Made by a program: the position numbers and the translations under genes. A DNA stretch of 64,000 nucleotides, from positions 11,188 through 75,187 of the forward strand of contig JBDHUP010000002.1 in the NCBI GenBank assembly GCA_039809245.1, given 5' to 3'. Positions 23,341-41,951 of the stretch are shown here, one piece after another. The notes beneath the pieces were generated by a model. That model searched no databases. It had not been told where the DNA came from and saw only the letters and a program-made list of their open reading frames with translations. This stretch comes from Minisyncoccia bacterium (GTDB lineage: Bacteria; Patescibacteriota; Minisyncoccia; Phycocordibacterales; UBA9973). The number at the start of each line of letters is the position of its first letter. Positions within the stretch are counted from its first letter, which is position 1.

Positions 23341-23427
23341 GGAGGTGTGGCTGAGTGGTTGAAGGCACTTGTCTTGAAAACAAGAGACCGTTTACGCGGT
23401 CCGTGAGTTCGAATCTCACCGCCTCCG
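23341..23427 (+). tRNA. tRNA-Ser (anticodon TGA), long variable arm; integration target
   Basis: Manual cloverleaf; anticodon loop CTTGAAA; acceptor GGAGGTG/CGCCTCC. Confidence 0.85.
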
Positions 23428-23429
23428 CA
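23414..23429 (+). repeat. attL: 16-bp tctcaccgcctccgca (3' end of tRNA-Ser), exactly repeated at 41904-41919
   Basis: Exact match found by eye. Confidence 0.65.
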
Positions 23430-23500
23430 TTGACAACTTGGTAGATACATGACCTGATTACTTATGTAACTAGTGCGACCCACAAACCTATCAAGTTACA

Positions 23501-23530
23501 AAAAAGAGCGATTCATTTCGCTCTTTTTTG
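23501..23530 (-). terminator. Hairpin agagcgattcatttcgctct plus T-run; terminator of the 189-aa gene. A near-identical hairpin lies at 41925-41942
   Basis: Seen in sequence. Confidence 0.55.
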
Positions 23531-24162: not shown

Positions 24163-25542
24163 ATGAATAATATAAATGAAAGGTCTGTGGGAAATGCGAC
24201 CTTACCAAATAAACCACTTCCCGTTATTAAGTACTGTCTCTATGCTCGTAAATCAATGGAAGACGAAGAACGGCAAGCTTTGTCTATTGATTCACAGCTA
24301 AAAGAAATGAAGCAAATAGCAGAAAGAGATAATCTCTATGTCGCTACTATGCGAACAGAAGCTCACTCTGCAAAGAATTCTGGTCAACGTCCTGTCTTTA
24401 ATCAAATGATTGAAGAAATACGTGAGGGTAAATACAACGCAATTCTTACATGGAATCCAGATCGTTTAAGCAGAAATGCTGGCGATCTCGGTGTATTGGT
24501 TGATCTTATGGACAGTCAATTATTAGTTGAGATACGGACCTATAATCAAAAGTTTAGTAACTCACCGAATGAAAAGTTTTTACTCATGATACTTGGTTCT
24601 CAAGCAAAACTTGAGAATGACAATAAGAGTATTAATGTGAAGCGTGGTCTTCGTACCAAGGTTGAGATGGGATTATGGCCCACTGTTGCACCAACAGGAT
24701 ATCTAAACAACATGACTCGAGGCAAAGAGGGTCATGTGATTATCGATCCAATTCGTGCACACGTTGTAAAACAAATATTCCAACTCGCAGCAGAAGGCTG
24801 GAGTCATAGAAGAATCAGAAGATGGCTTCGTGATGATTTGGATTTCAGATCCAAAAACAATAAGCACTTGGCTATGAGTACGATACAGAAAATATTATGT
24901 ACTCCTTTCTATTATGGCGAGTTTGAGTTTCCTAGAAAAAGTGGCAATTGGTATAAAGGTATTCATACACCACTCATTACAAAAGAATTATATGATCAGG
25001 TGCGAGAGCAGACTGACGCAAAGAAAAGATTGCAATATGTGTACAAGAAAAACTTTGCCTATACCAAGTTAATGAAGTGTGGTTTGTGTGGTGGAAATGT
25101 TACCGCAGAGGAAAAGTTCAAGGCTCTCAAAGACGGATCTATCGCTCGATATGTTTACTATGGATGCACTCGATCCAAAGATCCATCATGTAAGATTAAA
25201 TATATTCGTGAGGAATATCTCATCCAATCACTTCGTGAGTTGGTTGATAAATTATCACTCGACGATCTTGGTTTGCGTGGTCAATTTGAGAAAGAGGTTG
25301 AACGTATCCACCGATTCAACTGTGATGTTATGGGCAAACCACCCATGTATACCGATTCTGAAGAGCAAGATGTTGATATTAAAAAGTATATTAAATACAT
25401 TCTTCTCGATGGTTCTATAGAAGAGAAACGAAACATACTCCTCAATCTGAAGAGTAAATTAATTCTCAAGGACGGCTTCGTTTATCTCGATGTTGTTACA
25501 GATGAAGACGAGAGTCTTATGCCTACTCCTGTAGGAGATTAA
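24163..25542 (+). CDS. Large serine recombinase (resolvase catalytic domain, recombinase domain, zinc ribbon, coiled coil)
   Basis: YARKS catalytic-serine motif, CGLCGG...C zinc ribbon, 459 aa. Confidence 0.85.
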   Translation: MNNINERSVGNATLPNKPLPVIKYCLYARKSMEDEERQALSIDSQLKEMKQIAERDNLYVATMRTEAHSAKNSGQRPVFNQMIEEIREGKYNAILTWNPDRLSRNAGDLGVLVDLMDSQLLVEIRTYNQKFSNSPNEKFLLMILGSQAKLENDNKSINVKRGLRTKVEMGLWPTVAPTGYLNNMTRGKEGHVIIDPIRAHVVKQIFQLAAEGWSHRRIRRWLRDDLDFRSKNNKHLAMSTIQKILCTPFYYGEFEFPRKSGNWYKGIHTPLITKELYDQVREQTDAKKRLQYVYKKNFAYTKLMKCGLCGGNVTAEEKFKALKDGSIARYVYYGCTRSKDPSCKIKYIREEYLIQSLRELVDKLSLDDLGLRGQFEKEVERIHRFNCDVMGKPPMYTDSEEQDVDIKKYIKYILLDGSIEEKRNILLNLKSKLILKDGFVYLDVVTDEDESLMPTPVGD

Positions 25543-26899
25543 TCCTTTTATCATTCAGCACTAGTCTACTTCTTAAGTGTCCCAGTAGCTCACGCTTCTC
25601 AAGCGGTGTACCTTCACGCAACACATACTTAGCATATTCCCGAGTATTCACATCATCTTCATTGATGCTGTATTTTGGTGTACCTTTTGTTGCTAGTCTC
25701 TGTAATCTATTGAATCGCTTGATTTCTTCTTCGAGTTTCATTCGCATACCCAACTCATTGATGCTTACCTTATCGATGACCTTAAATAATTCTTCGATCA
25801 GTTCTTCTTCTCGTATGTATTTGTTTTTACAATTCCTATCCTTGGACTTACTGCATGAATAGTAGACGTACTTTGCTGTTGTTCCATCTTTAAGTTCCTT
25901 ATATTTCTCTTGTGCTGTTATTCCTGATTCACACATCCCGCAGGTGAATAATTTAGTGAATGCAAACTCTCTATTTTCTCGCACTATCTTATCTCTCTTT
26001 AATCTATCTTGAGCCTTATCAAACAATTCCTTAGTGATCAACGGTTCGTGCGATCCTTGATACCACTGTCCTGAGTTTCGTGGATATTCAAATGGTCCGT
26101 AGTAGATTGGCATATCGAATATACGATAAACCCCCGACAGAGTCAGGGGTTTATTCCCTCGAGTATAGAAGTTCAAATCGAACCGTAACCAGTTATAGAC
26201 TTTTCTACCACTCCATCCTTCGAATGCAACTTTCTCAAACATCTGTTTTATGACATGAGCACGATCTGGATCGGGTATGATCTGACACTTCTTATCCATT
26301 CTTTTCTGATTGATGTATCCCAGCGGTGCCATTCCGGGCCAGAGACCTGATTCAACTCGGGTACGCAGTCCACGCTTCACATTGATACCTCGGTTATCGT
26401 TTTCGAGTTTAGCCTGACTTCCCAAAATCATCAGGAGGAATTTCTCGTTTGGATTGTTTGAAAATGTCTGACCGAATGTTCGTATCTGTAAAAGTTTTCC
26501 TGCATCCATCAAGTCCACAATTTTTCCAAGGTCTCCTGCGTTTCTACTGATACGGTCAGGTGCCCACGTGAGAATCGCATTATATTTACCATCTTTTATT
26601 TCTTCGATTATTTCATTGAATACTGGTCGCTGACCCGTTTCCTTTGCCGAATGGCTTTCTCTTTTCATTGCCACAATCTCCAAGCCCTCACGATCTGCCA
26701 ACTGAAGCATTTCTTTGATCTGGGAGTCGATAGAGAGGACTTGGCGTTCTTCTGACTCGCTCGATTTTCTGGCGTACAGACAATACTGTGTTTTTACGCT
26801 TTTAATATCTATTTGGGGCATCTCAAAGCCCTGTGGTGCTGTTATTTTCATACAACCCATTAATGACGCAGACCATTTGAGGAGTCTAGAGCGTCCCAT
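25523..26899 (-). CDS. Large serine recombinase, paralog of the preceding gene; convergent with a 20-bp 3' overlap
   Basis: CLYARKS motif, CGMC...C zinc ribbon; ~55-60% identity to the neighbour by eye; start probably at an internal Met (MKITAPQ or MPQIDIK). Confidence 0.85.
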   Translation of the reverse strand: MGRSRLLKWSASLMGCMKITAPQGFEMPQIDIKSVKTQYCLYARKSSESEERQVLSIDSQIKEMLQLADREGLEIVAMKRESHSAKETGQRPVFNEIIEEIKDGKYNAILTWAPDRISRNAGDLGKIVDLMDAGKLLQIRTFGQTFSNNPNEKFLLMILGSQAKLENDNRGINVKRGLRTRVESGLWPGMAPLGYINQKRMDKKCQIIPDPDRAHVIKQMFEKVAFEGWSGRKVYNWLRFDLNFYTRGNKPLTLSGVYRIFDMPIYYGPFEYPRNSGQWYQGSHEPLITKELFDKAQDRLKRDKIVRENREFAFTKLFTCGMCESGITAQEKYKELKDGTTAKYVYYSCSKSKDRNCKNKYIREEELIEELFKVIDKVSINELGMRMKLEEEIKRFNRLQRLATKGTPKYSINEDDVNTREYAKYVLREGTPLEKRELLGHLRSRLVLNDKRINLLQE

Positions 26900-26959: not shown

Positions 26960-28702
26960 ATGAAAACCTATGAACACTTGACTTTATATCTTGAATCTGA
27001 TAGACTCAAATTACAACATATGAGAAAAGATATACAAGAAAAACTTAAGGGGATGCCAGAATTACTCTCTATCGGTCAGGTAGCAGAGATTTTCTCTATC
27101 CACCAAGACACCCTACGAAACTGGGAAAAAGACGGAACACTCGTCCCTCTTAGAGTCGGACCACGAAAAGATCGAAAGTACCGCCCACAAGACATTGAAG
27201 CAATTGTCGACAAAATGGGTAGCAAATTGACCCTTCCTCAACTTGAATCGTTCCTCTGGAAGAGTGCTGACATTCTTCGAGGAAAAATCGACAGTTCTGA
27301 TTACAAGAAATATATCTTTGGTCTTCTTTTCTACAAGCGAATGAGTGACGTTTGGGATGAAGAGTTCAACGCTGTAATGAAAGAGTACGATGATAAAGAT
27401 ATCGCTCGTGCAGACTACAATCACCGTTTCCAAGTTCCTAAAGATTGTCGATGGGAAAAAATTACAGAGCAAGCAGAAAACATCGGACAAAAACTCAATG
27501 ATATTTTTGATAAATTAACCAATGCAAACAGTCCGAAACTAGATAAAATTTTTGATGACCTAGACTTTGCAAACAAAGACCGTTTTCCAAACGAAACACT
27601 TCAGCGACTGATCAATCACTTTTCTCAATACAACTTTGGTAATACTTACATCAGCTCTGATCTCCTTGGTGACGCATATGAATACCTGATCAAACAGTTT
27701 GCAGCGGATGCAGGTAAGAAAGGTGGAGAGTTCTACACGCCTCGTGAAGTTGAAAAAGTTATCGTGGGCATTCTAAAGCCACACCAGAAAGACCACATCT
27801 ACGATCCAACAGTTGGATCGGGTGGTTTCCTTTTGGAAGCATATGACTATTTGAAACAAAAGTCTGGTGAAAAGATCGCAAAGACTTTGTATCTATACGG
27901 TCAAGAACAAAACCTTGCAACCTTTGCGATTGCGAAAATTAACATGTTCCTCCACGGACTTGATAGTGCCGATATTCGCCGAGGTGACACATTGGCAAAT
28001 CCACAATTCCTTAATCAACAAGGAGGTCTTCAAACATTCGACATTGTAGTAGCTAATCCTCCGTACTCAATCAAAGACTATGAATGGGAGGCATTCAAGA
28101 ATAAGTTTGGTCGTTTGGAGGGATACGATGCACCACCCGAGAAAAATGCTGATTATGCTTTTGTCCTCCATATAATCAAATCAATGAACACTAATGGTCG
28201 TGCAGGTATTGTGTTGCCACACGGTGTCTTAACTCGAGGTAATGCTGAGGCACGAATCCGTGAACAAATACTTAAAAATGATCTTGTTGAGGCAATTGTT
28301 GCTCTACCATCAAAACTATTCTATGGGACAGGTATTCCTGCCGTAGTGGTTATCCTTAACAAAAACAAAGCTGAGGACAAGAAAAACAAGGTTTTGATTA
28401 TCGATGCCGAAAAAGATTTTCAGGAAGGCAAAAATCAAAATACTCTAAGACCTGCCGATATAAATAAGATTGTAAAAGCATTTAATGGATACGAGGATAT
28501 CGATAAATACGCATGTGTTGTAACATTGAAAGATATAGAGGAGAAAGATTTTAACCTTAATATCCGAGAGTACATTGATTCATCTGAAGAAGAGGAGGTT
28601 ATTGATGTGAAAAAAGTAAGAAGTGAAATTGCTTCACTTAAAAAAGAATTATCAAAAGCAGATGCTTTAGTTGAAAAGTATTTAGATGAGCTTGGCTATT
28701 AA
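26960..28702 (+). CDS. hsdM: Type I R-M N6-adenine DNA methyltransferase HsdM carrying an ~85-aa N-terminal excisionase/MerR-type HTH extension
   Basis: HsdM N-domain (LTLPQLESFLWKSADILRG), motif I DPTVGSGGFL, motif IV NPPYS; N-terminal LSIGQVAEIFSIHQDTLRNWEKDG HTH. Confidence 0.9.
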   Translation: MKTYEHLTLYLESDRLKLQHMRKDIQEKLKGMPELLSIGQVAEIFSIHQDTLRNWEKDGTLVPLRVGPRKDRKYRPQDIEAIVDKMGSKLTLPQLESFLWKSADILRGKIDSSDYKKYIFGLLFYKRMSDVWDEEFNAVMKEYDDKDIARADYNHRFQVPKDCRWEKITEQAENIGQKLNDIFDKLTNANSPKLDKIFDDLDFANKDRFPNETLQRLINHFSQYNFGNTYISSDLLGDAYEYLIKQFAADAGKKGGEFYTPREVEKVIVGILKPHQKDHIYDPTVGSGGFLLEAYDYLKQKSGEKIAKTLYLYGQEQNLATFAIAKINMFLHGLDSADIRRGDTLANPQFLNQQGGLQTFDIVVANPPYSIKDYEWEAFKNKFGRLEGYDAPPEKNADYAFVLHIIKSMNTNGRAGIVLPHGVLTRGNAEARIREQILKNDLVEAIVALPSKLFYGTGIPAVVVILNKNKAEDKKNKVLIIDAEKDFQEGKNQNTLRPADINKIVKAFNGYEDIDKYACVVTLKDIEEKDFNLNIREYIDSSEEEEVIDVKKVRSEIASLKKELSKADALVEKYLDELGY

Positions 28703-28708
28703 TACAAT

Positions 28709-30292
28709 ATGACTATTACTGATTACAAAACAGAAAGAGAGAATGATGTAAGTAAAATTAAGTCTTCTGTCCACCCTAAAAAGGTTGTCGTTGCAGGGCC
28801 TGGGACAGGTAAGAGTTTTTTGTTTCAAGAACTTATCAAAGAGAAGAAAAAGTCTGGTAAGACTGATTTTGTTGCTATTACATTCATAGGTAAATTAGGT
28901 GATGCACTTGCTGATGACCTCTGTGGTTTAGCTGAAACTATGACTATGCATGGTTTTGCGAGAAGATTTGTTCTAGAAAAGTGTAAGGGCTGGATTTATT
29001 ACCCTAGAATGTATGACATCATTAAAGCTGATTTAAAAAGCGAAGGTATTGATGATTTTGAAATTGGAGACGACAATTACAAAAAGAAAACTCTTTTTTA
29101 TAAAGCTGTTGGTGATGAAGATGTTGTTCATTACGCAATCCAGATATGTGAAAAGGACAAATCAAAGATTCCTACTCACGATTTAATATTAATTGATGAG
29201 TTCCAGGACTTTAATGAAAAAGAATCGCAATTTGTTGATTTGCTTGCTGAGAAAAATGAGATTGTGATAGTTGGCGATGACGATCAGGCACTCTATGAAT
29301 TCAAAGGCTCATCTCCAGCTTATATTAGAAGCAAACACCACACAAGCAATACAGATTTTGAAAGTCATACGTTGAGATTTTGTTCGAGATGTACTGATGT
29401 TGTGATTAAATATTTTCATGCTCTCGTGGAGAAATTTAACCTTAAAGATTCTACAAAAAATCGGATTGAAAAGGATTATATATGTTACGTGCCTGACAAA
29501 GAAAAAGATTCTAAAGCGAACCCACAAATACATCTTATAAAAAATTGCCCTAGTGGAATGATTGCTTTTAAGATAAGAGCTGAGTTAGAAAAACTTGTTA
29601 CCGAGCAAAAAATTAAAGACATTCTCATTATTGGTGAAGGAAGATCTTGCAAAGCTATCCTTGAATCGATAGCAAAGCAACTGAAACACTACGGATTTAA
29701 AAATGTAGATTACGGTAAATCTAATGGCTATCTAGATACTAAGCAGAATATTGTTGATGCTTATAAGTTCTTAGCGAATGATCCTGAGTCAGTTTTGGGT
29801 TGGCGAATACTTGATAATCCAACAGATCAAACTGAAAAAGAAAGGCATCTAAAAAATTCTAAGACCTTAAAAGTAATTATTTCAGGTAAATCTGCTGAGA
29901 TTAAAAAACTCAAAGATACTGCTATTGTCGAACTAGAAAAGACTATAGAAAATAATCACGTTGATGATCCCATCCTCAAGAGATCTGTTTTTATTGATGA
30001 ATTACGAGACCGAAACATTGTTCTCTCAAGACCCCTTGGAAACTTAAATATTACAGTATGCAATATTCTGAATTCGAAAGGACTTGGTGCTGATGTTGTA
30101 TTTTTGGTCGGATTTGACGATGGTAAATTTCCTGCAAAAAACATACCGACTGACAGCGAAATTTATCAAATGCTTGTTGCTATTACAAGATCGAAGAAGC
30201 GAATGTATCTCGTTAATACAACTGGAAAGAAAACATCAGTCTTTCTCGATTGCTTGGATGCCAGTGACTTAAGCACAAAAGAAATTAAGTAA
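28709..30292 (+). CDS. Compact UvrD/Rep-like SF1 helicase embedded between hsdM and hsdS
   Basis: Walker A AGPGTGKS, motif II LILIDEFQDFN, motif III VGDDDQALYEF, C-terminal motifs SKGLGADVVFLVG and VAITRSKKRMYL; 6 bp after hsdM, 1 bp before hsdS. Confidence 0.75.
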   Translation: MTITDYKTERENDVSKIKSSVHPKKVVVAGPGTGKSFLFQELIKEKKKSGKTDFVAITFIGKLGDALADDLCGLAETMTMHGFARRFVLEKCKGWIYYPRMYDIIKADLKSEGIDDFEIGDDNYKKKTLFYKAVGDEDVVHYAIQICEKDKSKIPTHDLILIDEFQDFNEKESQFVDLLAEKNEIVIVGDDDQALYEFKGSSPAYIRSKHHTSNTDFESHTLRFCSRCTDVVIKYFHALVEKFNLKDSTKNRIEKDYICYVPDKEKDSKANPQIHLIKNCPSGMIAFKIRAELEKLVTEQKIKDILIIGEGRSCKAILESIAKQLKHYGFKNVDYGKSNGYLDTKQNIVDAYKFLANDPESVLGWRILDNPTDQTEKERHLKNSKTLKVIISGKSAEIKKLKDTAIVELEKTIENNHVDDPILKRSVFIDELRDRNIVLSRPLGNLNITVCNILNSKGLGADVVFLVGFDDGKFPAKNIPTDSEIYQMLVAITRSKKRMYLVNTTGKKTSVFLDCLDASDLSTKEIK

Positions 30293-30293
30293 T

Positions 30294-31418
30294 ATGAATA
30301 ATCCTCTTAAACAAAAGAATATTCCGAAAGGATGGGAATACGGTTCTCTTGGAGATTTTATTGTAGATATTAAAGATGGAGGAACTCCTTCTAGGCGTAA
30401 AGGTGAATATTTTGGTGGTGGTATACCATGGGTTGTCATCAAAGATATAAAATCTAGAATTTACTCTACAAACGAAACCCTTTCTAAATTAGGCATTGAA
30501 AATTCAAGTGCTAAGGTTTTTCCTGCAGGCACAGTTATTTTATCATTTGGTGCAACGATTGGAGAAGTTGGTATCGCAGAAGTTGATTTAGCTACAAAGC
30601 AAGGTATTGCCGGAGTTTTGCCAGATGTTTCAAAAATTACAACTGAATATTTATATTTTTTATTACAATCTCAAAAAAAGTTACTCAATCAAATGGCTAC
30701 AGGAAGTACTATTAAGGAAGTACGTCCAAATATTATCAAGAAAATTAATATACTTGTCCCCCCAATAAAAGAGCAGAAGAAAATTGCTGATATTTTGTTA
30801 TCTGTTGATGAAGAGATTCAAAAGGTTGAAGAGATAATTTCCGCGACTGAAAAATTAAAAAAAGGGCTGATGTCAGGATTATTTACTAAAGGAATTGGTA
30901 ATAATAAATTTCAAAAAACAAGAATCGGAGATATATTAACTTTAGAATACGGCAAACCATTAAAAGCATCAGATAGAGTCTCTGGAGATATACCAGTTTT
31001 TGGTTCAAACGGTATAGTTGGATATCATGATACAAGCTTAGTAAAAGGACCTGGTGTTATTGTAGGAAGAAAAGGAGGGGCTGGAGAAGTGATGTTTTCA
31101 GAAGTAGATTTTTATCCCATAGATACAGCTTATTTTGTAAAAACGGATTTTAATAAAAAATTTATTTATTATTTATTAGTAAATACAAACTTAAAAAAGC
31201 GTTCCGGAGGTAGTGCTGTTCCTGGATTAAATAGAAATGACGCATATTCTAAAATAGTGATTCTTCCAAAAAAAGAAGGTCAAGAGATAATTGTAAACAT
31301 TTTATCTTCTGTAGATAGAAAAATTATTACTTGTCAGAAATTAAAAACAAAATTATTAGAACTTAAAAAGGGATTAGTGTCGGATCTCCTGAGTGGAAGT
31401 AAAAGAGTAAAAATATGA
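30294..31418 (+). CDS. hsdS: Type I R-M specificity subunit HsdS (two target-recognition domains)
   Basis: Duplicated TRDs with conserved repeats (PPIKEQKKIADIL / PKKEGQEIIVNIL). Confidence 0.85.
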   Translation: MNNPLKQKNIPKGWEYGSLGDFIVDIKDGGTPSRRKGEYFGGGIPWVVIKDIKSRIYSTNETLSKLGIENSSAKVFPAGTVILSFGATIGEVGIAEVDLATKQGIAGVLPDVSKITTEYLYFLLQSQKKLLNQMATGSTIKEVRPNIIKKINILVPPIKEQKKIADILLSVDEEIQKVEEIISATEKLKKGLMSGLFTKGIGNNKFQKTRIGDILTLEYGKPLKASDRVSGDIPVFGSNGIVGYHDTSLVKGPGVIVGRKGGAGEVMFSEVDFYPIDTAYFVKTDFNKKFIYYLLVNTNLKKRSGGSAVPGLNRNDAYSKIVILPKKEGQEIIVNILSSVDRKIITCQKLKTKLLELKKGLVSDLLSGSKRVKI

Positions 31419-32473
31419 AATTACTATTTTTAGATTCAAATATATTCCTTAATTTCTATGATTTTCATGATGAAGATCTAACTCAACTTGCGAAGTTGGT
31501 GGATGTAATAAAGGCTAAAGAAATAAAGCTCTTTTTGACTACTCAAGTTTGTGAGGAAATTAAGAAAAACAGAGAGGCTCGATTAAAGGTTGCGTATGAG
31601 AAAATCGTAGATTCAAAAGTAACTTTAGCTATTCCTCCTTTTTGTAAACACTACGATGAGTATTCTGATATTAAGCGTGCTCAAAATATTCTTGATCAAT
31701 TAAAATCTGAACTAAGTAAGAAACTTTGGGAAGATATACAAAATCACACACTACAAGCTGATAAAATTATTAACGACCTTATCAATGAGAGTAGTATAAT
31801 TGATTCAGATAAATATTTGCCTCAGGCAATACAAAGGCATCAATTAGGTAGACCGCCTGGAAAGAAAGATAGGAGTTATGGCGACGAGATTAACTGGGAG
31901 GCAATTTTAGCTGAAGTGTCTGGTGAGGGTGAATTTATACTTCTTAGTAAAGATGGCGACTATGCTCATGCAATAGATGATCAGTCGCTAAAAGACTATC
32001 TTGTTGATGAATGGAAGAAGAGTCATCCAGATAATGAAATATTTTTCTACAAAAGCTTAACTAAATTTTTCACTGAGCATGATATCAAGATCGAGTTGCG
32101 TATAGAACAGGAAAAAGATGAACTTGTTCGAGACTTGATTAACAGTCACAACTTCTTAAATACACACATTATAGTAAGTAGTCTCTCTAAATACAGTAGT
32201 TTTACAGATGATCAGGTAAGAGGTATAGCAAATGCTTTGAGTGAAAATAGTCAGGTTAGATGGATTATTGATGATGCCGATGTAAAGGAATTTTATAGAG
32301 ACAATCTTCTTCCTAGGTTAGACTTATTTGATTCCGAGACACAGCAAAGTATTAGAGGCTTAATTCAAGGTGAAGAAGTTGCGGATTTGTCTGCCGAATT
32401 GAATAATCTTGAAGAAAAACTTAAAGAAGAAAAAGATGAAGAAAGTGATAATGAAGAAGATATTCCATTTTAA
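31415..32473 (+). CDS. PIN-like domain protein (predicted nuclease) with acidic C-terminal tail, embedded between hsdS and hsdR
   Basis: Four spaced acidic positions in a PIN-like pattern (LFLDSNIF, TTQVCEEI, GDEINWEAIL, LLSKDGDY); ATGA overlap with hsdS, 9 bp before hsdR. Confidence 0.45.
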   Translation: MKLLFLDSNIFLNFYDFHDEDLTQLAKLVDVIKAKEIKLFLTTQVCEEIKKNREARLKVAYEKIVDSKVTLAIPPFCKHYDEYSDIKRAQNILDQLKSELSKKLWEDIQNHTLQADKIINDLINESSIIDSDKYLPQAIQRHQLGRPPGKKDRSYGDEINWEAILAEVSGEGEFILLSKDGDYAHAIDDQSLKDYLVDEWKKSHPDNEIFFYKSLTKFFTEHDIKIELRIEQEKDELVRDLINSHNFLNTHIIVSSLSKYSSFTDDQVRGIANALSENSQVRWIIDDADVKEFYRDNLLPRLDLFDSETQQSIRGLIQGEEVADLSAELNNLEEKLKEEKDEESDNEEDIPF

Positions 32474-32482
32474 CTAAACAAT

Positions 32483-35395
32483 ATGAAATTCAACGAATTA
32501 TATACAATAGAAAAACACGTTATAAAATTCATCCAAGAAAAACTTGGCTATGAGTTTATTCCTGCTGAAGAGTTTTCAAAACTTCGTGCTTTCGAAAACG
32601 AGGTTATTATCACTTCACACCTTATTGAATCTGTTCAAAAGATAAATGAGGTTGATGAAACTTTGGCTCAAAGTGTCGTTCGTGAGATCAAGAAACTTGA
32701 TACCAATGAAGCATTTTTACTTACGATGCGAAATGGTGTAAATCTTAAAGATCCTGCAACTGGCAAGAATCGTGATTTTCAGATTGTTGATTTTGATAAT
32801 GCCGACAACAACCGATTTGTTGTTACAAGTCAGTTCTACTTCGAGGGCACCACAGAAAACATTCGCCCTGACGTGATGATTTTCTTGAACGGTCTACCTA
32901 TCTCTGATATTGAAGCAAAAAGCCCCACCGCTTCTAGCTCGGTAAGCTTTGAGAATGCTATTGATCAGATCAAGCGATACGAAAAAGTTGCATCAAAACT
33001 ATTTCTCCCTAACTGCTTTAATATTGCAACAGACGGACTAAAAACAGTGTATGGAGCAACTTATTCTCCAAAGCAATACTTTTTGACTTGGCGAGAAGAT
33101 CCACATAGTGAATCAAAGATGTTTGAAGATGAGCTTGATTCAACACTCTACTTCCTATTTGAAAAAGAAAGACTCCTTGATGTCTTGAAGAACTTTATTG
33201 TATTTGAAAAGAAGAAAGACGGATCTATTAAAAAGATAGCTCGATATCAGCAACTGTACGCTTCTAATAAAATTGTAGAGAGAGTTAAGGATGGTGACCA
33301 TAAAAAAGGTCTTATTTGGCATACTCAAGGATCTGGAAAGACTCTGACCATGTTTTTTACTGCTTGGAAGCTTCGATATGCACCTGAGCTTAAAAACCCA
33401 AAGGTATTTATTCTCATCGACCGTATTGATCTTGATGATCAAGTATTTGAAGAGTTTGAAGCTTGGGGTGGTCAGAACCTCATTCGAGTTGAGTCTCGTA
33501 AGGATCTCGAAAAGAAAATCAAAGGTGCAGACCGAGGTATCTTTATTTCAACTATCCAGAAATTTACTGAACTAGAAGAAATTGAAAGTATTGATGGAAA
33601 TGTCATCGTTCTTTCTGATGAAGCCCACCGAGATAACGAGGGAGTATCTGCTATCAAGATGCGTAATGCATTTAAAGATGCGTTCTTCTTTGGGTTCACT
33701 GGAACTCCTATTGATAAACTAACTCTTAATACACACCGCAACTTTGGTGAAGATGGAGAGCGATATCTTGATTATTATTCTATTCAACAAGCTATTGATG
33801 ATGGTGCGACGTTGCCTGTTACCTATGAAGCTCGACTTTCTAAATTCTTTATTGACGAGGAAACCGTAGACAAAAAGTTCAATGAACTAACTACTGATCT
33901 GAGCAAAGAACAGAAAGAACTCCTTACAAAGAGGTACGGAAAGAAGGAAGCTCTGGTAAAGCTAGAGAAACGAATGGAAGCAGTCATTCAGGATATTGTT
34001 GAACATTACAAGCTGTATGTCCTTCCAAACGGGTTTAAAGCACAGATTGTGTGTTATGACCGAGAAGCAACAGCAAAGTATAAAGACTTGCTTGATAAGC
34101 TTGTGCCATCAGAATGGTCAGAAGTTGTATATTCTCCCGCTGATCCAAATAGTGATAGCGACGACCTAAAAAAATACAACACGAACAAACAAAAGCGAGA
34201 GAAGATTATTGAACAATTCAAAGACCCAACTCATCCTCTAAAGTTTCTACTTGTCTGTGACATGCTTTTGACTGGTTTTGATGCTCCAGTTGAACAGGTA
34301 ATGTACCTTGATAAGCCACTCCGAGACCATAATCTTCTACAAGCTATTGCTCGTACAAACCGTGTCTACCCAAACAAAGGGTGTGGAAAGATTATTGACT
34401 ACTATGGTGTGACTAAGAACCTCTATGATGCTCTCAATTTTGATGAGAGTGTGGTTGATAGTGCGATGATCAATATTGATAAGTTGAAAGAAGACTTCAA
34501 AAAGGTGCTTGATGAAGTCATGAGTCTTTTCGAGGGGGTTAATATTGAAGATCCTTCAATTGAAAACCTTCGTCGATGTCTCAAGATATTTATCGACAAT
34601 CAAAGCAAACAACAATTCTTCAAAGACAAATATGGTCGTCTAAAGATGTTGTTTGAGATACTTTCTCCCGATCCATTCCTTATTGAGTATCTACGCAAAT
34701 TTGAGTGGATTACCAGTTTCTATCTTGCTTTTAGTAAAGAATTTCAACCAGAAGGAGTTGATGCGTTTTCTCTTGCTGAATACGGAGAGAAAATCAAAAA
34801 CCTTATCCAAGACAAGATTGATTATGAGGGAATCACTAAGAATTTCCGTGAGCTATCGGTACACGATCTCGCTACACTTAACAAACTAGACAAACTTCCT
34901 GATGAAGATAAGGCTCTTAATCTTGAAAAGATGCTTAAACGTGAGATCTCTATCAACATAGACACACACCCAGCATTTAAAGGATTTGGTGAGCGACTTT
35001 CCTCAATTAGACAAGAGTTTGAGAAACATCAGATTGATCTTGCTGAACGTATCAAGCGTTACTACGAACTTCTGAACGATATCAAGACCAAAACTGAAGA
35101 AGCAAAGGAACTTGGTTATTCTCTCCATGAATACGGACTCTTTGTAATTTCTGAGGAATTCATTAGCGAATCAGATCAAGCGGTTATAAAAGAATTCATC
35201 AAGGAAATGTCATCTCGATTGGAGGATGTTCTTGATGAGGGATGGCAAAACTCATCAAAGCGTGAGGAGTTTATAAAAGAAGCCAAGAGAACATTGCAGG
35301 AGTTAATTCTTAAAGACTACAAGAACAAGATTCAGATTTCTGACTTCCAAAAATATCTCAATCGTTTGATTGATGTAGTTATTAAAAAATTCTAA
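32483..35395 (+). CDS. hsdR: Type I R-M restriction subunit HsdR (SF2 translocase/endonuclease)
   Basis: 970 aa; Walker A HTQGSGKTLT, DEAH-box VLSDEAHR, helicase motif VI QAIARTNR. Confidence 0.9.
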   Translation: MKFNELYTIEKHVIKFIQEKLGYEFIPAEEFSKLRAFENEVIITSHLIESVQKINEVDETLAQSVVREIKKLDTNEAFLLTMRNGVNLKDPATGKNRDFQIVDFDNADNNRFVVTSQFYFEGTTENIRPDVMIFLNGLPISDIEAKSPTASSSVSFENAIDQIKRYEKVASKLFLPNCFNIATDGLKTVYGATYSPKQYFLTWREDPHSESKMFEDELDSTLYFLFEKERLLDVLKNFIVFEKKKDGSIKKIARYQQLYASNKIVERVKDGDHKKGLIWHTQGSGKTLTMFFTAWKLRYAPELKNPKVFILIDRIDLDDQVFEEFEAWGGQNLIRVESRKDLEKKIKGADRGIFISTIQKFTELEEIESIDGNVIVLSDEAHRDNEGVSAIKMRNAFKDAFFFGFTGTPIDKLTLNTHRNFGEDGERYLDYYSIQQAIDDGATLPVTYEARLSKFFIDEETVDKKFNELTTDLSKEQKELLTKRYGKKEALVKLEKRMEAVIQDIVEHYKLYVLPNGFKAQIVCYDREATAKYKDLLDKLVPSEWSEVVYSPADPNSDSDDLKKYNTNKQKREKIIEQFKDPTHPLKFLLVCDMLLTGFDAPVEQVMYLDKPLRDHNLLQAIARTNRVYPNKGCGKIIDYYGVTKNLYDALNFDESVVDSAMINIDKLKEDFKKVLDEVMSLFEGVNIEDPSIENLRRCLKIFIDNQSKQQFFKDKYGRLKMLFEILSPDPFLIEYLRKFEWITSFYLAFSKEFQPEGVDAFSLAEYGEKIKNLIQDKIDYEGITKNFRELSVHDLATLNKLDKLPDEDKALNLEKMLKREISINIDTHPAFKGFGERLSSIRQEFEKHQIDLAERIKRYYELLNDIKTKTEEAKELGYSLHEYGLFVISEEFISESDQAVIKEFIKEMSSRLEDVLDEGWQNSSKREEFIKEAKRTLQELILKDYKNKIQISDFQKYLNRLIDVVIKKF

Positions 35396-35397
35396 CT

Positions 35398-35967
35398 ATG
35401 AAAAAGCATATAGAACTTCACAAAAGAAAAGTTCCATATACGCTCAAAGTAAGTAAGCGAGCAAAAAGACTCCGCCTCGCAATTTATTGTGATGGTGCTT
35501 TTGTTGTGACCACTCCTCGAAATGTTGAGGTTTCAGTTATTGAGAAATTCATCATACAAAGATCTCAGTGGGTTATCGATAAGTTAGATTACTTCAGCCA
35601 ATTCTCTGATGTATTCAAAAAGAAGAATACTCAAGCAGAATATTTGAAGTACAAAGAAGAGGCTCTATCTTTAGCCGAGAAAAAGGTTAAGAAATTCAAT
35701 AAGATTTACAAATTCTCTTACAACAAGATTAATATCAAAAATCAAAAGACTCGCTGGGGTAGCTGTTCTAAAAAAGGTAACCTTAATTTCAACTATAAAA
35801 TTGCGTTGTTGCCTGAACGTCTTGCTGAGTACATAGTCGTACACGAACTCTGCCACCTTGGACAATTTAATCACTCTCAGAAGTTTTGGAATTTGGTAGC
35901 CAAGGCTATACCTGACTATCTAGAGATCAAGGAGGAGTTAAAAAGAAGTGGTTTAAGATTTCATTAA
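35398..35967 (+). CDS. DUF45/COG1451 (YgjP-like) zinc metallohydrolase, a known companion of Type I R-M operons
   Basis: HELCHL...H metal-binding motif near the C-terminus; 2 bp after hsdR. Confidence 0.65.
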   Translation: MKKHIELHKRKVPYTLKVSKRAKRLRLAIYCDGAFVVTTPRNVEVSVIEKFIIQRSQWVIDKLDYFSQFSDVFKKKNTQAEYLKYKEEALSLAEKKVKKFNKIYKFSYNKINIKNQKTRWGSCSKKGNLNFNYKIALLPERLAEYIVVHELCHLGQFNHSQKFWNLVAKAIPDYLEIKEELKRSGLRFH

Positions 35968-35968
35968 T

Positions 35969-36214
35969 ATGGATGACTGGAGCTTCAACATACCCAAAAA
36001 GATTTTGAGAGTATTATTGATTGGTGCAGTCATACTTGCTGTTCTCTACGGGGTTTTTACTGGTGACTCAAAGAAAGGTGCTGATTTTTATATGAAGGAG
36101 GTTAAATTTATTATGACTCCAATAATAAATAAAATGCAAAATCGTATGGAAAAGATATTCGATAGAGCACTTAATAAAACTCAAGAGAACCAGAGTGAGA
36201 ATGTCGAAAACTAA
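35969..36214 (+). CDS. Small single-TM protein
   Basis: 81 aa ORF, 1 bp after the preceding gene. Confidence 0.3.
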   Translation: MDDWSFNIPKKILRVLLIGAVILAVLYGVFTGDSKKGADFYMKEVKFIMTPIINKMQNRMEKIFDRALNKTQENQSENVEN

Positions 36215-37701
36215 CCGAACAATATTCCACCTGAAACTGGATTATTCTCAATAATTTTAAGAACCACGATGGAAAAAGCGTCAGCTAAGTCATCGTGTTT
36301 TTCTTTTCCAAATCCAAGAAGTTGCTCGATTAATTCTTCACAACCGCTTTCAGGAAATAAAATGCGTCCGTCCTTTAACAATGGAGTCGTGAGTCGTAAT
36401 CGTGCACCTTTGTCGTTTCTTCCTGTTGGCACACCCTCAATGTCATACTTTTGACTCTCAAAGAATTGGATCAATGCTTTTTGATATCCAACATCTTCCA
36501 CAAAAAGTTTTACCCGATTGTGTTTCATTTTCTCGGTTGCCACCAACGCTTTGATAAATTCTGCGTGTACAGGAAATGAACTCCTTTTGTTATAAGGATG
36601 CTTTTGAATATAGATTTTCATATTTTTCCCTGTGCCGTATACATATGCAACGACAATAGCGGTGCAGTCAGCTGAATCTTTTTCACTTACCGCCAAATCG
36701 ATACCTATACAGATACTTCTAAATCCATCGGCAGGCATTTTGTCATAGAATGTGATCCATTCAGGCAAGACAATCTGCTCGTCAGTCGCAATGATCTGAA
36801 GCATATACTCACGAAACCACGCAACATCATCCATAGTTTTTTCTCGCTCAGCTTCAACATCTTCTGGAGCAGGATACTTGCCGGGCCATAAAGGATTGCC
36901 CTTGGGATCAACAATAGGATATTCACGGTATACAGCCTTAATGCGACTCATTTCACCATTTTCGATTTTCTTTTGTAGTCGCTTCAGCACAGAGTCCTCA
37001 TGAAGTAAGTTACCCACAGCAATGATTCTCGTTTTCTTGGTTCCTGCAGGGATTACTTCACTTACAAGCCAGTTGAATGTTTTATCACGACCAACACGAG
37101 TTTTAACCGATTGGGTATCTTCAATGTCGTCTATGATAATAAGGTCGGGGCGATGTTGATCGTGTCTTACTCCACGGATGCTTTGCTCTACAGAGCTGAT
37201 CATAATCTTCACATTGAGTCTCTTGATAATGAGTGCCGTAGCATTACCGAGATTGTTCTTTTCTTCTTCAAAAGGTCCAAGGTCTTTTCGCAGAAGGTCA
37301 TTATTTAAAAGCTGACTTTTTATATTCAAAAGATACTGCCGTGCTTTTTGCTCAGTTTGACCACAAATAACAATAAGCTTTCTTTGCTGTATACCGAGGA
37401 TAGACCATAGGACATACGCTGTTGAAATGATGGTTGATTTTGCTAAACCACGGAATGCAACAAACACTGCAAGTTTAATGCGATCATCTTCAAGAATACG
37501 AAACATCTCCTCGTGAAAGGGTGCTGTCTCATACTCCATGTATTGGTGAAAATATATTGGGAAAAAGAATTCAAAACTATTTTGTACAGTATGTTTTCGT
37601 ACTGTTTGATCAATAAGAATTTTCTCAAAAATATCTTCACTATTCCTTTGTGTCTTTAAACTTGGCATGTTTGCGTAATGATGAAAGTTTGAGTGCGGCA
37701 C
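36211..37701 (-). CDS. Phage terminase large subunit (ATPase plus RNase-H-like nuclease)
   Basis: Walker A-like RGLAKST, Walker B DLIIIDD, C-terminal nuclease acidic residues (IGIDLAVSEKDSAD). Confidence 0.75.
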   Translation of the reverse strand: MPHSNFHHYANMPSLKTQRNSEDIFEKILIDQTVRKHTVQNSFEFFFPIYFHQYMEYETAPFHEEMFRILEDDRIKLAVFVAFRGLAKSTIISTAYVLWSILGIQQRKLIVICGQTEQKARQYLLNIKSQLLNNDLLRKDLGPFEEEKNNLGNATALIIKRLNVKIMISSVEQSIRGVRHDQHRPDLIIIDDIEDTQSVKTRVGRDKTFNWLVSEVIPAGTKKTRIIAVGNLLHEDSVLKRLQKKIENGEMSRIKAVYREYPIVDPKGNPLWPGKYPAPEDVEAEREKTMDDVAWFREYMLQIIATDEQIVLPEWITFYDKMPADGFRSICIGIDLAVSEKDSADCTAIVVAYVYGTGKNMKIYIQKHPYNKRSSFPVHAEFIKALVATEKMKHNRVKLFVEDVGYQKALIQFFESQKYDIEGVPTGRNDKGARLRLTTPLLKDGRILFPESGCEELIEQLLGFGKEKHDDLADAFSIVVLKIIENNPVSGGILFG

Positions 37702-38071
37702 GAATGAGCTTCTTTTCTTCTTTCGTCAGAGGCTTTTCTTTTGATTCAATACTTCCTGAAAGCTCAAGTTTGTTGCTGTACCGTGGATTGTGAGTTGAGA
37801 GATATAACCGAATAGCCTCTATCTTTCTCTCACTAATCAGAGCAAAGAGTTGGTTCTCAGCAACATCTGACATAAATTTTCTACCCTCGTTAAGAGACTC
37901 ATCAATTTGCCGTTCAAACTTCTTACTATTCGCAATCCATCGATAAACCGTAGCTCGTGATACACCAACTTTTTGACAGGAAGTTTCAAGAGTGGGCGTA
38001 CGCTTGAGCTGGTCGAGCAAAGCTTCTTTGATACGCGATTGCCTTTGTTGTATTGAATCTTTTCTACTCAT
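37640..38071 (-). CDS. Terminase small subunit-like HTH protein
   Basis: N-terminal HTH (VGVSRATVYRW) typical of phage TerS; immediately upstream of terL. Confidence 0.45.
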   Translation of the reverse strand: MSRKDSIQQRQSRIKEALLDQLKRTPTLETSCQKVGVSRATVYRWIANSKKFERQIDESLNEGRKFMSDVAENQLFALISERKIEAIRLYLSTHNPRYSNKLELSGSIESKEKPLTKEEKKLIRAALKLSSLRKHAKFKDTKE

Positions 38072-38826
38072 AGTTTTTCTGCTTTGACTCCAGACAGCTT
38101 TTCAAAACGATCAATGACTGTTTGACAGTATTCAATATCCATCTCGACTCCGATGCATATACGCTTTGTCTGCTCGCACGCAAGCAATGTTGTACCTGAA
38201 CCTAGAAACCCATCAAAAACCACATCTCCGATCCGTGTACTATTTAGTACAAGTCTACGAATAAGATCGATTGGCTTTGTCGATGGATGCATTTTGCTTT
38301 TATTTGGTTTTGGACAAACCAAGACACTCTTGTCTTTTGATTTCAAAAACTCATGTGTGCCATGCCACCCGTATGCGATTAGTTCATGTTGAGGTGCATA
38401 GTCCATACGACCGATGACTGCATGAGTTTTCACCCAAATGAGAAGTTGTCCAAATTTAAGACCTGCTTCGTGCATTCCTTCACGCAAAGCAAATACCATC
38501 TTGTCTGAATTAAAGATATAAAAGCTATTTTTACGATCAAGGTGGGGTCTAATAGCCTCAATCCAATCACGGGTGAAAGTTTTATATTCCAGATCGCTTT
38601 GTAAGTGATCGTTGAGTATTGGTTTATTCTTGGCGAGTGTCTGAAATCCTTCCTTACTTTCAGCTACGGCTACTCCATAGGGTGGGTCAGAGATTACTGC
38701 TTTGATTTTGTGTGTACTAACAAGCCTTGCGATCATATCCTTGTTTCGTGAATCTGCACACAAAAGCAAATGCTGTCCTAACCGAAATGCATCGCCGTAT
38801 TTAATTGAGCTTTGTGACTTTTTCAT
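38068..38826 (-). CDS. DNA methyltransferase (beta-class N6A/N4C, DPPY)
   Basis: Motif IV SDPPYG precedes motif I FLGSGTT. Confidence 0.8.
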   Translation of the reverse strand: MKKSQSSIKYGDAFRLGQHLLLCADSRNKDMIARLVSTHKIKAVISDPPYGVAVAESKEGFQTLAKNKPILNDHLQSDLEYKTFTRDWIEAIRPHLDRKNSFYIFNSDKMVFALREGMHEAGLKFGQLLIWVKTHAVIGRMDYAPQHELIAYGWHGTHEFLKSKDKSVLVCPKPNKSKMHPSTKPIDLIRRLVLNSTRIGDVVFDGFLGSGTTLLACEQTKRICIGVEMDIEYCQTVIDRFEKLSGVKAEKL

Positions 38827-40078
38827 TGGATATTTTCTTAAATCTATTAATAATTACCTGACAGAAAACTGGTTCAATTTCTGCAAGGAATGCTCGACGT
38901 TTAAGTGCTTCACAGGCAACCAGAATACTCCCTGATCCAGCCGTCAGATCAAGAATCGTATCACCAGGTTTACTACACCGTCTGATGCTTTTTTCGTATA
39001 AAGTCGGTGGCTTCATTGTCGGATGCTGATATTCAGAACTAGGCAGTCTTTTCGCAAGCCATATCTGGAACATGTCCGAAATATCATCAAGTAATCTATT
39101 ACCAGAGGATATTTCCTTATTCTGAAATTCAGTCAGATTCTTAACTTTGTCAGATAGATAGGGCTTACCTCGAACTCCATACATACAAAGCTCTACGGCA
39201 CGATTAAAAGCGATTTTAGGGGTTGGATTATGTTGAGACTTTGCCCACAAACAGAGTCGTTTGAAATCAATACCTACTGCTTTGAAAACATCCTGCATCA
39301 TCCCTAGGTATTTCTCATCCAGCCATGCAAAAGCATGGCAATCGTTCTTCGATACCCCCAGTGCGTTTTTTAAGATACTTGCAAGAAACTCCTTGTACTC
39401 AGCATCTGATTTTTTATCATTGATAGTTCCTCCGTAGTTCTGCTTGCCACCTAATCCCGCCGAGTAATCTACGCCTATGTTATATGGAAAATCTATATTG
39501 ATGAGATCTATCCGCTCAGAACCCACTAGCTCTGTAACGGTTTCTTTTTTAGTACTATCTCCACAAATTAAAACGTGACTCCCGAGTGAAAATTTATCAC
39601 CCAATTTAATGTCAGTTTTTTGAGCTTCCTTGAGTTCCTTTTCAAGATCAATATCATCGTCATCTACTTCGAGGTTGTCATCGAAAATATTAGAAAGATC
39701 GAATGAATCAAAACCCGCAGTAAGGAGTTCGTCGAGATCAAAATCTCGTGCAAGCTTTTCAAAATCCCAAGACGCACCGCTTCGATTTGAGGTGAGTAGG
39801 TAATCTTTAAATTCTTTTTCTGTAAGAGTTCTGTTTGGAACTCTTACCTCTATTTCTTCATCTTCTCGACCAAGAAGAGACAAGACCATCACTCGTTGGT
39901 TTCCAGCAACCAGAGTGCCGTCTGTGTTGATACACGGCAATTCTGCCAGATCAAATTTCTTGAGACTTCGCTTGAGTCCCTCAAGTTGTGTAGGCGAAAG
40001 TTTGCGAGGATTCTTTTCGTATCGAATCAAATCCTTCACTTTACGTTTCTCCGTATGCCAAACTAATTTTTTGCTCAT
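38801..40078 (-). CDS. ParB-like nuclease domain fused to a DNA methyltransferase
   Basis: N-terminal ParB/Srx-like segment (EKNPRKLSPTQLEGLKRSLKKF...AGNQR), C-terminal MTase motifs (DFPYN, LTAGSGS). Confidence 0.75.
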   Translation of the reverse strand: MSKKLVWHTEKRKVKDLIRYEKNPRKLSPTQLEGLKRSLKKFDLAELPCINTDGTLVAGNQRVMVLSLLGREDEEIEVRVPNRTLTEKEFKDYLLTSNRSGASWDFEKLARDFDLDELLTAGFDSFDLSNIFDDNLEVDDDDIDLEKELKEAQKTDIKLGDKFSLGSHVLICGDSTKKETVTELVGSERIDLINIDFPYNIGVDYSAGLGGKQNYGGTINDKKSDAEYKEFLASILKNALGVSKNDCHAFAWLDEKYLGMMQDVFKAVGIDFKRLCLWAKSQHNPTPKIAFNRAVELCMYGVRGKPYLSDKVKNLTEFQNKEISSGNRLLDDISDMFQIWLAKRLPSSEYQHPTMKPPTLYEKSIRRCSKPGDTILDLTAGSGSILVACEALKRRAFLAEIEPVFCQVIINRFKKISNEKVTKLN

Positions 40079-40171
40079 AGTTATATTGGTTAGCTAATAA
40101 TGTAGATACGTGTATATCTGTATTGAGCATAGACCTAAAGAAAACAGCTGTAATCTGTAACTTTAGAGGGT

Positions 40172-40206
40172 AAAAAAAGCAAAAAAGCCCACATTTATGG
40201 GCTTTT
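40172..40206 (-). terminator. Hairpin aaaagcccacatttatgggctttt plus T-run on the minus strand
   Basis: Seen in sequence. Confidence 0.55.
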
Positions 40207-40227
40207 AAGAAAACTTTTCCACTCCAC

Positions 40228-40845: not shown

Positions 40846-40877
40846 ATTTTACCTTAAATAAGGGATATAATGTACGT

Positions 40878-41903: not shown

Positions 41904-41919
41904 TCTCACCGCCTCCGCA
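41904..41919 (+). repeat. attR: second copy of the 16-bp tRNA-Ser 3' end
   Basis: Exact match to 23414-23429. Confidence 0.65.
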
Positions 41920-41943
41920 AAAAAAGAGCGATTAATCGCTCTT
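41919..41943 (-). terminator. Hairpin agagcgattaatcgctct with A/T-run flanks; terminator of the VOC gene
   Basis: Seen in sequence. Confidence 0.5.
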
Positions 41944-41951
41944 TTTCTTTT

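Follow-up and report, generated by a model that had tools for sequence, protein, structure and literature searches.

The 64,000-nucleotide stretch of DNA analyzed here (the window), part of contig JBDHUP010000002.1 of a Minisyncoccia bacterium, contains a type I restriction-modification (R-M) operon in which two non-R-M genes are embedded, one encoding a superfamily 1A (SF1A) helicase and the other a PIN-domain protein. Six genes follow one another on the + strand: hsdM (26960..28702), encoding the methyltransferase subunit; the gene for a 527-aa SF1A helicase, compact and Rep/UvrD-like (28709..30292); hsdS (30294..31418), with two target recognition domains; the gene for a 352-aa PIN_12/DUF4935 protein (31415..32473); hsdR (32483..35395), encoding the restriction/translocase subunit; and a trailing gene for a YgjP-like/DUF45 metallopeptidase (35398..35967). 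Read directly at the junctions, the separations are 6, 1, −4 (an ATGA overlap between hsdS and the PIN gene), 9, and 2 bp, reproducing exactly the coordinates, strand, and tight co-directional packing recorded in a first-pass annotation of the same DNA. Internal terminators and promoters are not predicted within the cluster in numbers above shuffled expectation, which makes one operon the simplest reading, and co-regulation of the helicase and PIN genes with the R-M genes through this operon is plausible. The helicase gene occupies the interval between hsdM and hsdS (slot 1) and the PIN gene the interval between hsdS and hsdR (slot 2).

Profile searches, which the first-pass annotation had suggested as a check, uphold its naming of all six genes. 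HsdM is identified by Pfam, NCBIfam, and PADLOC models (N6_Mtase PF02384, 4e-108; HsdM_N PF12161, 3e-27; TIGR00497, 265 bits against a cutoff of 242.75) and carries an N-terminal MerR-type helix-turn-helix (HTH) at aa 35-85 (PF13411, 2.5e-8; gene region 26960-27240). The same fusion is found in the related loci L001, L003, L116, and L122 (loci are cited by number throughout) and is missing from the type I families of L004 and L117; the HTH is possibly an autoregulatory domain of the operon family to which the window belongs. HsdS matches Methylase_S (PF01420, 1e-45) over two stretches and the PADLOC model Specificity_I (1.5e-81), and HsdR matches HSDR_N (1e-33), SWI2_SNF2 (6e-69), and TIGR00348 (5e-166; 554 bits, cutoff 284.55). 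The trailing protein (Pfam, 7e-44) shows in translation a HELCH motif that fits HExxH. Its gene is a constant component, following hsdR in L001, L003, L004, L011, L116, L121, and L122, and the earlier description of DUF45 as a recurrent hsdR neighbor is borne out. Judged from these matches, the locus is an apparently complete, functional-looking type I R-M operon made up of MerR-HsdM, HsdS, HsdR, and the trailing DUF45 protein.

The relationship of the two embedded genes to each other and to this backbone was approached by comparison with related loci. Relatives of the helicase and PIN proteins were gathered from a 5.8-billion-protein index, GTDB species genomes, and metagenome contigs. The GTDB species genomes yielded at least 537 confirmed helicase relatives, from which 80 loci were kept, and metagenome contigs provided 23 loci with the PIN gene. 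The window proteins were run by tblastn against 112 loci, and the later addition of L113-L124 brought the total to ~120. Outside the window, the helicase and PIN genes occur together in none of these.

This result bears directly on the interpretation offered by the first-pass annotation, that the two proteins are halves of one split nuclease-helicase effector working with, or physically attached to, the type I complex. The residence of both genes within a single tightly packed operon favors such an arrangement, as does the general frequency with which helicases and nucleases are paired in defense. A very weak hint of partners with tails like that of the PIN protein comes from L044, where a DUF2130 protein ending in ...EDIPF adjoins a helicase homologue. 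The order hsdM-helicase-hsdS-PIN-hsdR is not conserved, however, and the pairing is sporadic, an outcome that the annotation had itself named as contrary to its proposal. Backbones that are 95-99% identical hold either gene without the other. In L121, HsdM, PIN, HsdR, and DUF45 are 99%, 93%, 97%, and 97% identical to their counterparts in the window, and slot 1 contains no helicase gene; a ThsB-TIR/PDC-M50A/ThsB-TIR cassette lies there instead (L121:1389-3006; PADLOC e-73, e-41, and e-64, respectively). In L122/L123, the helicase, HsdR, and DUF45 are each 95% identical and HsdM 82% identical to those of the window, the PIN gene is absent, and slot 2 holds a 305-aa gene unrelated to PIN. Of the 7 operons in the family of the window, 5 contain the helicase, 3 contain PIN, and only 1 contains both, compared with ~2 expected under independence. 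The overall distributions of the two families are also far apart (740+ helicase against 41 PIN matches in a word-indexed search), and clustering of neighbors within ±4 genes in 110 loci revealed no conserved partner for either gene, only R-M genes and recombinases recurring. The complete lack of co-occurrence, combined with near-identical backbones that carry one gene only, implies that helicase and PIN do not constitute a two-gene system, and a split effector is accordingly a very improbable description of the pair. The narrower statement of the annotation, that the two genes cannot be placed in any named multi-gene system, stands: the GajA partner of Gabija, the antitoxin of VapBC, and the domains of PrrC/RloC were not found.

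The sister operons instead point to two positions at which cargo is exchanged. Slot 1 contains the helicase in the window, L003 (whose HsdM is 91% identical to that of the window), L011, L116, and L122, a 301-aa gene in L001, and the ThsB cassette in L121. Slot 2 contains PIN in the window, L001, and L121, or else genes of 292, 397 plus 158, 449, or 305 aa. Cargo proteins other than helicase and PIN are mutually unrelated, and those of the sister operons (292, 301, 305, 397, 158, 449, and 155 aa) match no Pfam family and have no convincing match in PADLOC, the 292-aa protein giving a weak match to PDC-S32 (1.6e-4). At least seven unrelated cargo types are seen in the same slots of related operons, in agreement with the earlier observation that type I R-M loci host embedded non-R-M genes. 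Neither passenger is bound to its position, as the helicase gene also lies between hsdS and hsdR in L021 and the PIN gene between hsdM and hsdS in the EcoEI-type operon of L117.

DNA alignments (blastn) of the window with its relatives locate the limits of the exchanged segments. Homology breaks at the hsdM stop codon (28702; L121), ~44 nt into hsdS (30337-30338; L122 and L011), within the final 100-150 nt of hsdS (31263-31312; L001 and L121), and 7-17 nt upstream of hsdR (32466-32476; L003, L011, and L122). HsdS, the hypervariable core of the operon, is only 26-53% identical among relatives whose HsdM and HsdR are 82-99% identical. The sharing of breakpoints indicates that the conserved hsdM and hsdR genes and the conserved ends of hsdS serve as recombination arms. 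Exchange at the hsdM 3′ end, the hsdS ends, and the hsdR 5′ end swaps hsdS specificity together with the neighboring passenger, and the contents of the two slots assort independently as a result. Base composition varies along the same interval. The helicase, hsdS, and PIN genes have GC contents of 0.342, 0.314, and 0.330, as compared with 0.386 for hsdM and 0.373 for hsdR, and the dip to 0.31-0.34 over 28709-32473 coincides with the exchangeable segment, flanked by hsdM, hsdR, and recombinase genes at 0.37-0.41. At the distal end, the DNA homology of L121 and L122 to the window stops at 35967-35968, the position of the DUF45 stop codon. Two further ideas, phase variation of hsdS and a shufflon run by the neighboring recombinases, were rejected for the window, as no inverted or direct hsdS repeats occur in the 23-38 kb region.

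Alignment of these operons shows two slots with independently assorting cargo and fixed recombination breakpoints, and the status of helicase and PIN as independent embedded cargo is well supported. We therefore favor a reading in which the locus is a type I R-M operon whose two hsdS-flanking slots carry autonomous single-gene passengers with the roles proposed below for each protein, and we assign to it a probability of about 0.72. Embedding would let the helicase and PIN genes share transcription and transfer with the R-M genes as non-partners. That both are autonomous single-gene defense or accessory modules can be stated with moderate confidence.

The slot 1 passenger contains UvrD-helicase, AAA_19, and UvrD_C domains and no nuclease domain. 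Residue invariance was judged over 31 homologues each for helicase and PIN, and by this measure the motor motifs of the helicase are intact and invariant, comprising Walker A AGPGTGKS (G30-K35), DEFQD, GDDDQ, and TRSKK (TRxKK). A CxxC pair (C225-C228, 29381-29392, within RFCSRCT), C314, and C451 are likewise invariant, and C72, C147, C259, and C280 nearly so. These cysteines may form a metal site, and we know of no equivalent CxxC/cysteine site in Rep, UvrD, or PcrA. The protein scores far under all NCBIfam equivalog cutoffs, and a PDB-sequence profile search returns only partial UvrD, PcrA, and Rep matches. Members of its family from Patescibacteria, Acidobacteriota, Bacteroidota, and Gammaproteobacteria share 50-70% identity, a cross-phylum level that indicates horizontal mobility. 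Literature searches found no R-M-linked UvrD-like single-gene system, and this compact Rep-like helicase family linked to R-M appears undescribed.

The association with R-M genes extends beyond the operon family of the window. In the 80 GTDB loci, an R-M-like open reading frame (ORF) lies within 3.5 kb of the helicase gene in 23 cases, versus 3 in the comparison zone at 6.5-10 kb. Among type I genes, the helicase is found in both slots and in two families that are unrelated to each other (window, L003, L011, L116, L122, L004/L010, and L021); it also adjoins a MutH/Sau3AI-like restriction endonuclease and a C5-methyltransferase (MTase) in L113 and an N6_N4 MTase and Res in L114, and lies near GmrSD-like genes in L037 and L063. 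By gene neighborhood, the family is enriched beside R-M genes of types I, II, III, and IV. A JAB-type RadC gene is found directly upstream of the helicase gene in L113, L114, and L009, loci that have no type I genes and often an integrase or recombinase. As part of the proposed mechanism, the helicase would be an ATP-driven translocase on single-stranded DNA (ssDNA) that acts on DNA ends or ssDNA from the restricted invader; this is the weakest step and is put forward with low confidence.

The chief competing explanation for the helicase is that it performs a maintenance or transfer function, such as replication, excision, establishment, or restriction alleviation, for recombinase- or integrase-bearing islands and is not a defense protein. 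In the window, the gene for a large serine recombinase (recombinase 2, 25523..26899, − strand; Pfam) diverges from hsdM; homologues hold the same position in L003, L004/L010, and L116 and lie beside type I genes in L124, such that helicase and recombinase travel together in all of these loci. In L004, identity to the window reaches 73% for the recombinase and 71% for the helicase, far above the 37% of HsdM and 29% of HsdR. RadC, integrase, or DUF87 genes are found nearby in L009, L113, L114, and L006, the protein matches a generic phage DNA helicase family in PHROGs (2e-32), and its nearest folds, Rep, AdnB, and HelD, are housekeeping motors. On the other hand, the gene is situated between hsdM and hsdS, apart from the recombinase gene, and this position is kept in two unrelated type I families, while L122/L123 have no recombinase nearby. 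The enrichment of R-M genes is specific to the 3.5-kb interval, and the helicase is almost missing from viral sequences, a single full-length relative (1 locus) being found among the 2.9 million viral contigs of IMG/VR. The same slot in L121, moreover, holds a bona fide defense cassette, ThsB/PDC-M50. A mobile-element function is, on this evidence, unlikely but deserves to be kept in view.

The slot 2 passenger matches PIN_12 (PF16289) at 6e-19, with 69.6 bits against a gathering cutoff of 32. It has a predicted three-part layout: a VapC-like PIN domain spans aa 1-~220, the C-terminal domain (aa ~225-345) is entirely helical, and the protein closes with an acidic, disordered tail whose last residues are ...EEDIPF. 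The acidic residues D7, E48, D116, D157, and D180 are invariant. Of the helical domain, aa 223-302 align with positions 292-370 of the 384-position PADLOC model PDC-S34 (3.3e-15), an overlap of ~80 residues. A hidden Markov model scan gave 824 cluster representatives of the family at E≤1e-30, and a fold search of BFVD one PIN-like match. There is no match in PHROGs, and the family is rare in IMG/VR (3 loci). An R-M-like ORF lies within 3.5 kb of the PIN gene in 14 of 25 loci, as compared with 0 at 6.5-10 kb, and the family is enriched, judging by its neighbors, beside R-M genes of type I and type IV/II. The protein is proposed, with low confidence, to be a latent VapC-like effector that most likely cleaves RNA. 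In an infected cell, its helical domain and tail would sense factors associated with replication or ssDNA, or dock onto them, and would trigger abortive infection by a logic comparable to that of Cosus, DARNA, and PrrC.

A different mode of control would be a PrrC-like guard arrangement, in which PIN and/or the helicase is held latent on HsdM2S or HsdR and is freed when a phage anti-restriction protein disables the complex. Homologues of PIN with at least 42% identity are nearly always R-M-associated, 13 of the 14 with usable flanks lying inside or directly beside R-M genes, a distribution that recalls the almost exclusively type I-embedded PrrC. The lack of an accompanying antitoxin gene and the ATGA overlap with hsdS, suggestive of translational coupling, also fit this model. 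The family nevertheless spans three type I families (that of the window, L001, and L121; L117; and L106), uses either slot, and lies beside EcoRI-methylase and GmrSD/HNH genes in L002, L093, and L094, where hsd genes are absent; distant members may even be solitary among housekeeping genes (L119). Such spread is hard to square with a conserved interface to one R-M complex, and we regard the guard arrangement as doubtful, more so than a mobile-element role for the helicase. Still less probable is that PIN serves as the toxin of an addiction module, similar to a toxin-antitoxin pair, that stabilizes the R-M island with no sensing of phage. The VapC-like fold with its complete acidic site would suit a toxin, and clustering of PIN toxins with R-M genes is on record (Matelska et al. 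2017). Yet no VapB-like antitoxin ORF is adjacent in any context, Matelska et al. (2017) describe the DUF4935 family as PIN-like, monocistronic, and without a known function, the protein is extended by a large helical domain and a conserved tail, and anti-phage activity has been demonstrated for a PIN_12 protein.

The tail of the PIN protein (32420-32473) is acidic, ends in ...EEKDEESDNEEDIPF, and is predicted to be disordered, with a predicted local distance difference test score below 50 for residues 344-349. In E. coli, the C-terminal tip of SSB (the protein that binds single-stranded DNA), ...DFDDDIPF, is the docking motif for SSB-interacting proteins. The PIN tail fits the pattern of this tip in being disordered and acidic and in ending D-[IVL]-P-F. 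All loci together contain 2919 ORFs of at least 100 aa; a [DE][IVLM]PF ending is present in 12 of them, of which 11 are members of the PIN family. The 150 best PIN-family representatives (<50% mutual identity) include 61 with a terminal F and ~49 with a terminal PF. The one ORF of the 12 that lies outside the PIN family has the ending ...KEDIPF and encodes the 454-aa DUF2130 protein mentioned above (L044:11869-13233, − strand), whose gene is convergent with, and 255 bp from, that of a 32% identical helicase homologue; this is a single case, for which the chance expectation is ~1 in 10. No SSB-tip mimic on a defense nuclease was found in literature searches, and the SSB-like tail of the PIN family appears undescribed.

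A more specific version of the proposed roles holds that the tail is a genuine SSB-tip mimic, which either brings the latent nuclease to SSB-client proteins at intermediates of replication or recombination or holds it autoinhibited until the tail is displaced by ssDNA or a phage SSB-binding factor, and that the helicase is an accessory motor that processes DNA ends made by restriction. In this strong form the proposal is speculative and unlikely. If true, the PIN tail would give an abortive-infection nuclease embedded in an R-M operon a novel principle of sensing, and the compact Rep-like helicase would be an undescribed accessory motor selected beside restriction systems of all types. The two are testable defense candidates from the poorly studied Patescibacteria: the helicase family is present in >500 species-level genomes, and the DIPF tail of the PIN_12 family bears on how defense systems read the state of SSB and ssDNA.

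Several observations weigh against the favored account of a two-slot operon with autonomous defense or accessory passengers. No R-M gene is detectable within 3.5 kb of approximately 70% of helicase homologues, and RadC, integrases, or serine recombinases neighbor several of these homologues, a setting that makes a mobile-element function possible; a defense role for the protein is assigned by guilt by association and is held with low confidence. The PF tip is kept by only about one-third of the PIN-family representatives, its resemblance to the SSB tip is a sequence analogy, and a search of the window and the loci did not turn up the cognate SSB of the genome, only one unrelated SSB-like ORF with no DIPF tip. 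Genomic context was limited to ±10 kb on contigs that are often short. Finally, helicase and PIN may have functional synergy in this particular locus through co-transcription.

A tRNA-Ser(TGA) gene (23341..23429, + strand; ARAGORN) ends in a 16-nt sequence, TCTCACCGCCTCCGCA, at 23414-23429 that is a putative attL, and an exact direct repeat of it, the putative attR, is found by repeat search and alignment at 41904..41919 (+ strand). The two copies bound an ~18.5-kb island carrying the operon, which is, on the strength of this repeat, predicted to be integrated in the tRNA-Ser gene of the Patescibacteria genome. Similar terminator-like hairpins are present at 23500-23529 and 41920-41949, the latter directly following the putative attR. 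At the tRNA-proximal end of the island, recombinase 2 is preceded by a second large serine recombinase gene (recombinase 1, 24163..25542, + strand), with Resolvase, Recombinase, and Zn_ribbon_recom domains in Pfam; the two genes are convergent, and their 3′ ends overlap by 20 bp. Downstream of the operon, an 81-aa ORF of uncertain reality (35969..36214, + strand; ORF list) starts 2 bp after the DUF45 stop codon, matches no family, and has no tblastn match in any related locus. The far half of the island (36211-41594) encodes TerL (phrog_38, 1e-80), TerS, an N6_N4 MTase, a ParB_N-MTase fusion, a 205-aa protein without assignment, and an HNH_5 endonuclease. Pfam and PHROGs searches detected no capsid, portal, or tail genes in the island, and its far half fits one of two descriptions, a satellite-like element or a prophage remnant.

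The helicase invites comparison with several described motors. It resembles GajB of Gabija in being a UvrD-like SF1A protein of ~500 aa, and its best PADLOC matches are GajB models (9e-27), one of them near full length (3.5e-21). Gabija was nonetheless rejected as an assignment: no protein of the operon matches GajA, the OLD-family ATPase-TOPRIM partner whose absence the first-pass annotation had already remarked on, and the 86 helicase homologues have no conserved non-R-M partner cluster beside them. From Rep, UvrD, and PcrA the protein differs in being only ~18% identical and ~150-200 residues shorter, in its invariant cysteines, and in belonging to a horizontally mobile, R-M-linked family.

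The PIN protein differs from VapC of VapBC in its long helical inserts, an extra domain of ~120 residues, and the acidic tail. VapBC was also rejected as an assignment, there being no VapB gene; the neighbors of PIN are hsdS and hsdR, and no small ORF lies upstream in any context. A closer parallel is Cosus (Brc24), a PIN_12 single-gene integron cassette that provides strong anti-T7 defense dependent on the PIN aspartates (bioRxiv 10.1101/2024.07.02.601719). Compared through its authors' PIN12 assignment alone, Cosus shares with the protein described here the PIN_12 domain and a single-gene mobile cassette; unlike it, Cosus is borne by an integron and not an R-M operon, and no C-terminal SSB-like tail has been reported. 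In the Cosus-bearing integron, two-gene cassettes with a ThsB homologue ("Tragantia") precede Cosus (bioRxiv 10.1101/2024.07.02.601719), and a ThsB-like plus PIN_12 neighborhood is therefore seen twice, the L121 operon having PIN downstream of its ThsB cassette. DARNA (PD-T7-3) combines a HEPN RNase with a helical C-terminal ssDNA sensor (bioRxiv 10.64898/2026.02.22.705581), an arrangement similar to that proposed for PIN, with an N-terminal RNase domain and an α-helical C-terminal sensor tied to the state of SSB and ssDNA in an infected cell. The two are not homologous, having HEPN and PIN folds, respectively, and the link of PIN to SSB consists of the tail motif only.

Other systems provide precedent for the location of the two genes. 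Like PrrC/EcoprrI and RloC, the window has a gene for a putative latent nuclease between hsd genes, a possible back-up for occasions when restriction fails. PrrC and RloC consist of an ABC-ATPase and a HEPN-like anticodon nuclease, domains that profile searches detect in neither embedded protein, whereas the protein here combines PIN_12 with a helical domain and belongs to a family that also occurs beside type IV/II systems and alone. In the type I R-M cluster of Vibrio cholerae VPI-2, the embedded genes of TgvAB form an independent defense that complements the host R-M system (PMC11411939). The window similarly has genes embedded in a type I operon as a putative separate restriction or defense function, but TgvAB is an obligately adjacent GmrSD-like pair, whereas hsdS separates the two genes considered here, which do not form a conserved pair. 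The broadest precedent is the guilt-by-embedding survey of cargo in type I R-M, BREX, DISARM, and Hma operons, which includes the candidate PDC-S34 (Payne, Hughes, Fineran & Jackson 2024, bioRxiv 10.1101/2024.01.29.577857). There, as here, non-R-M genes are nested between hsd genes, mostly as single genes or small defense-type cassettes, and the sister operon L121 with ThsB/PDC-M50 in the helicase slot conforms to this pattern. The window helicase, by contrast, matches no PDC model, only generic GajB and DRT helicase models, and PDC-S34 covers just ~80 residues of PIN. The embedding phenomenon itself is already known; its form here, independent assortment in two slots, is documented at near-strain resolution. 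With backbones 95-99% identical, the locus is an unusually clean natural case of a type I operon acting as a two-slot cargo carrier, and it illustrates that tight packing of helicase and nuclease genes does not make a system.

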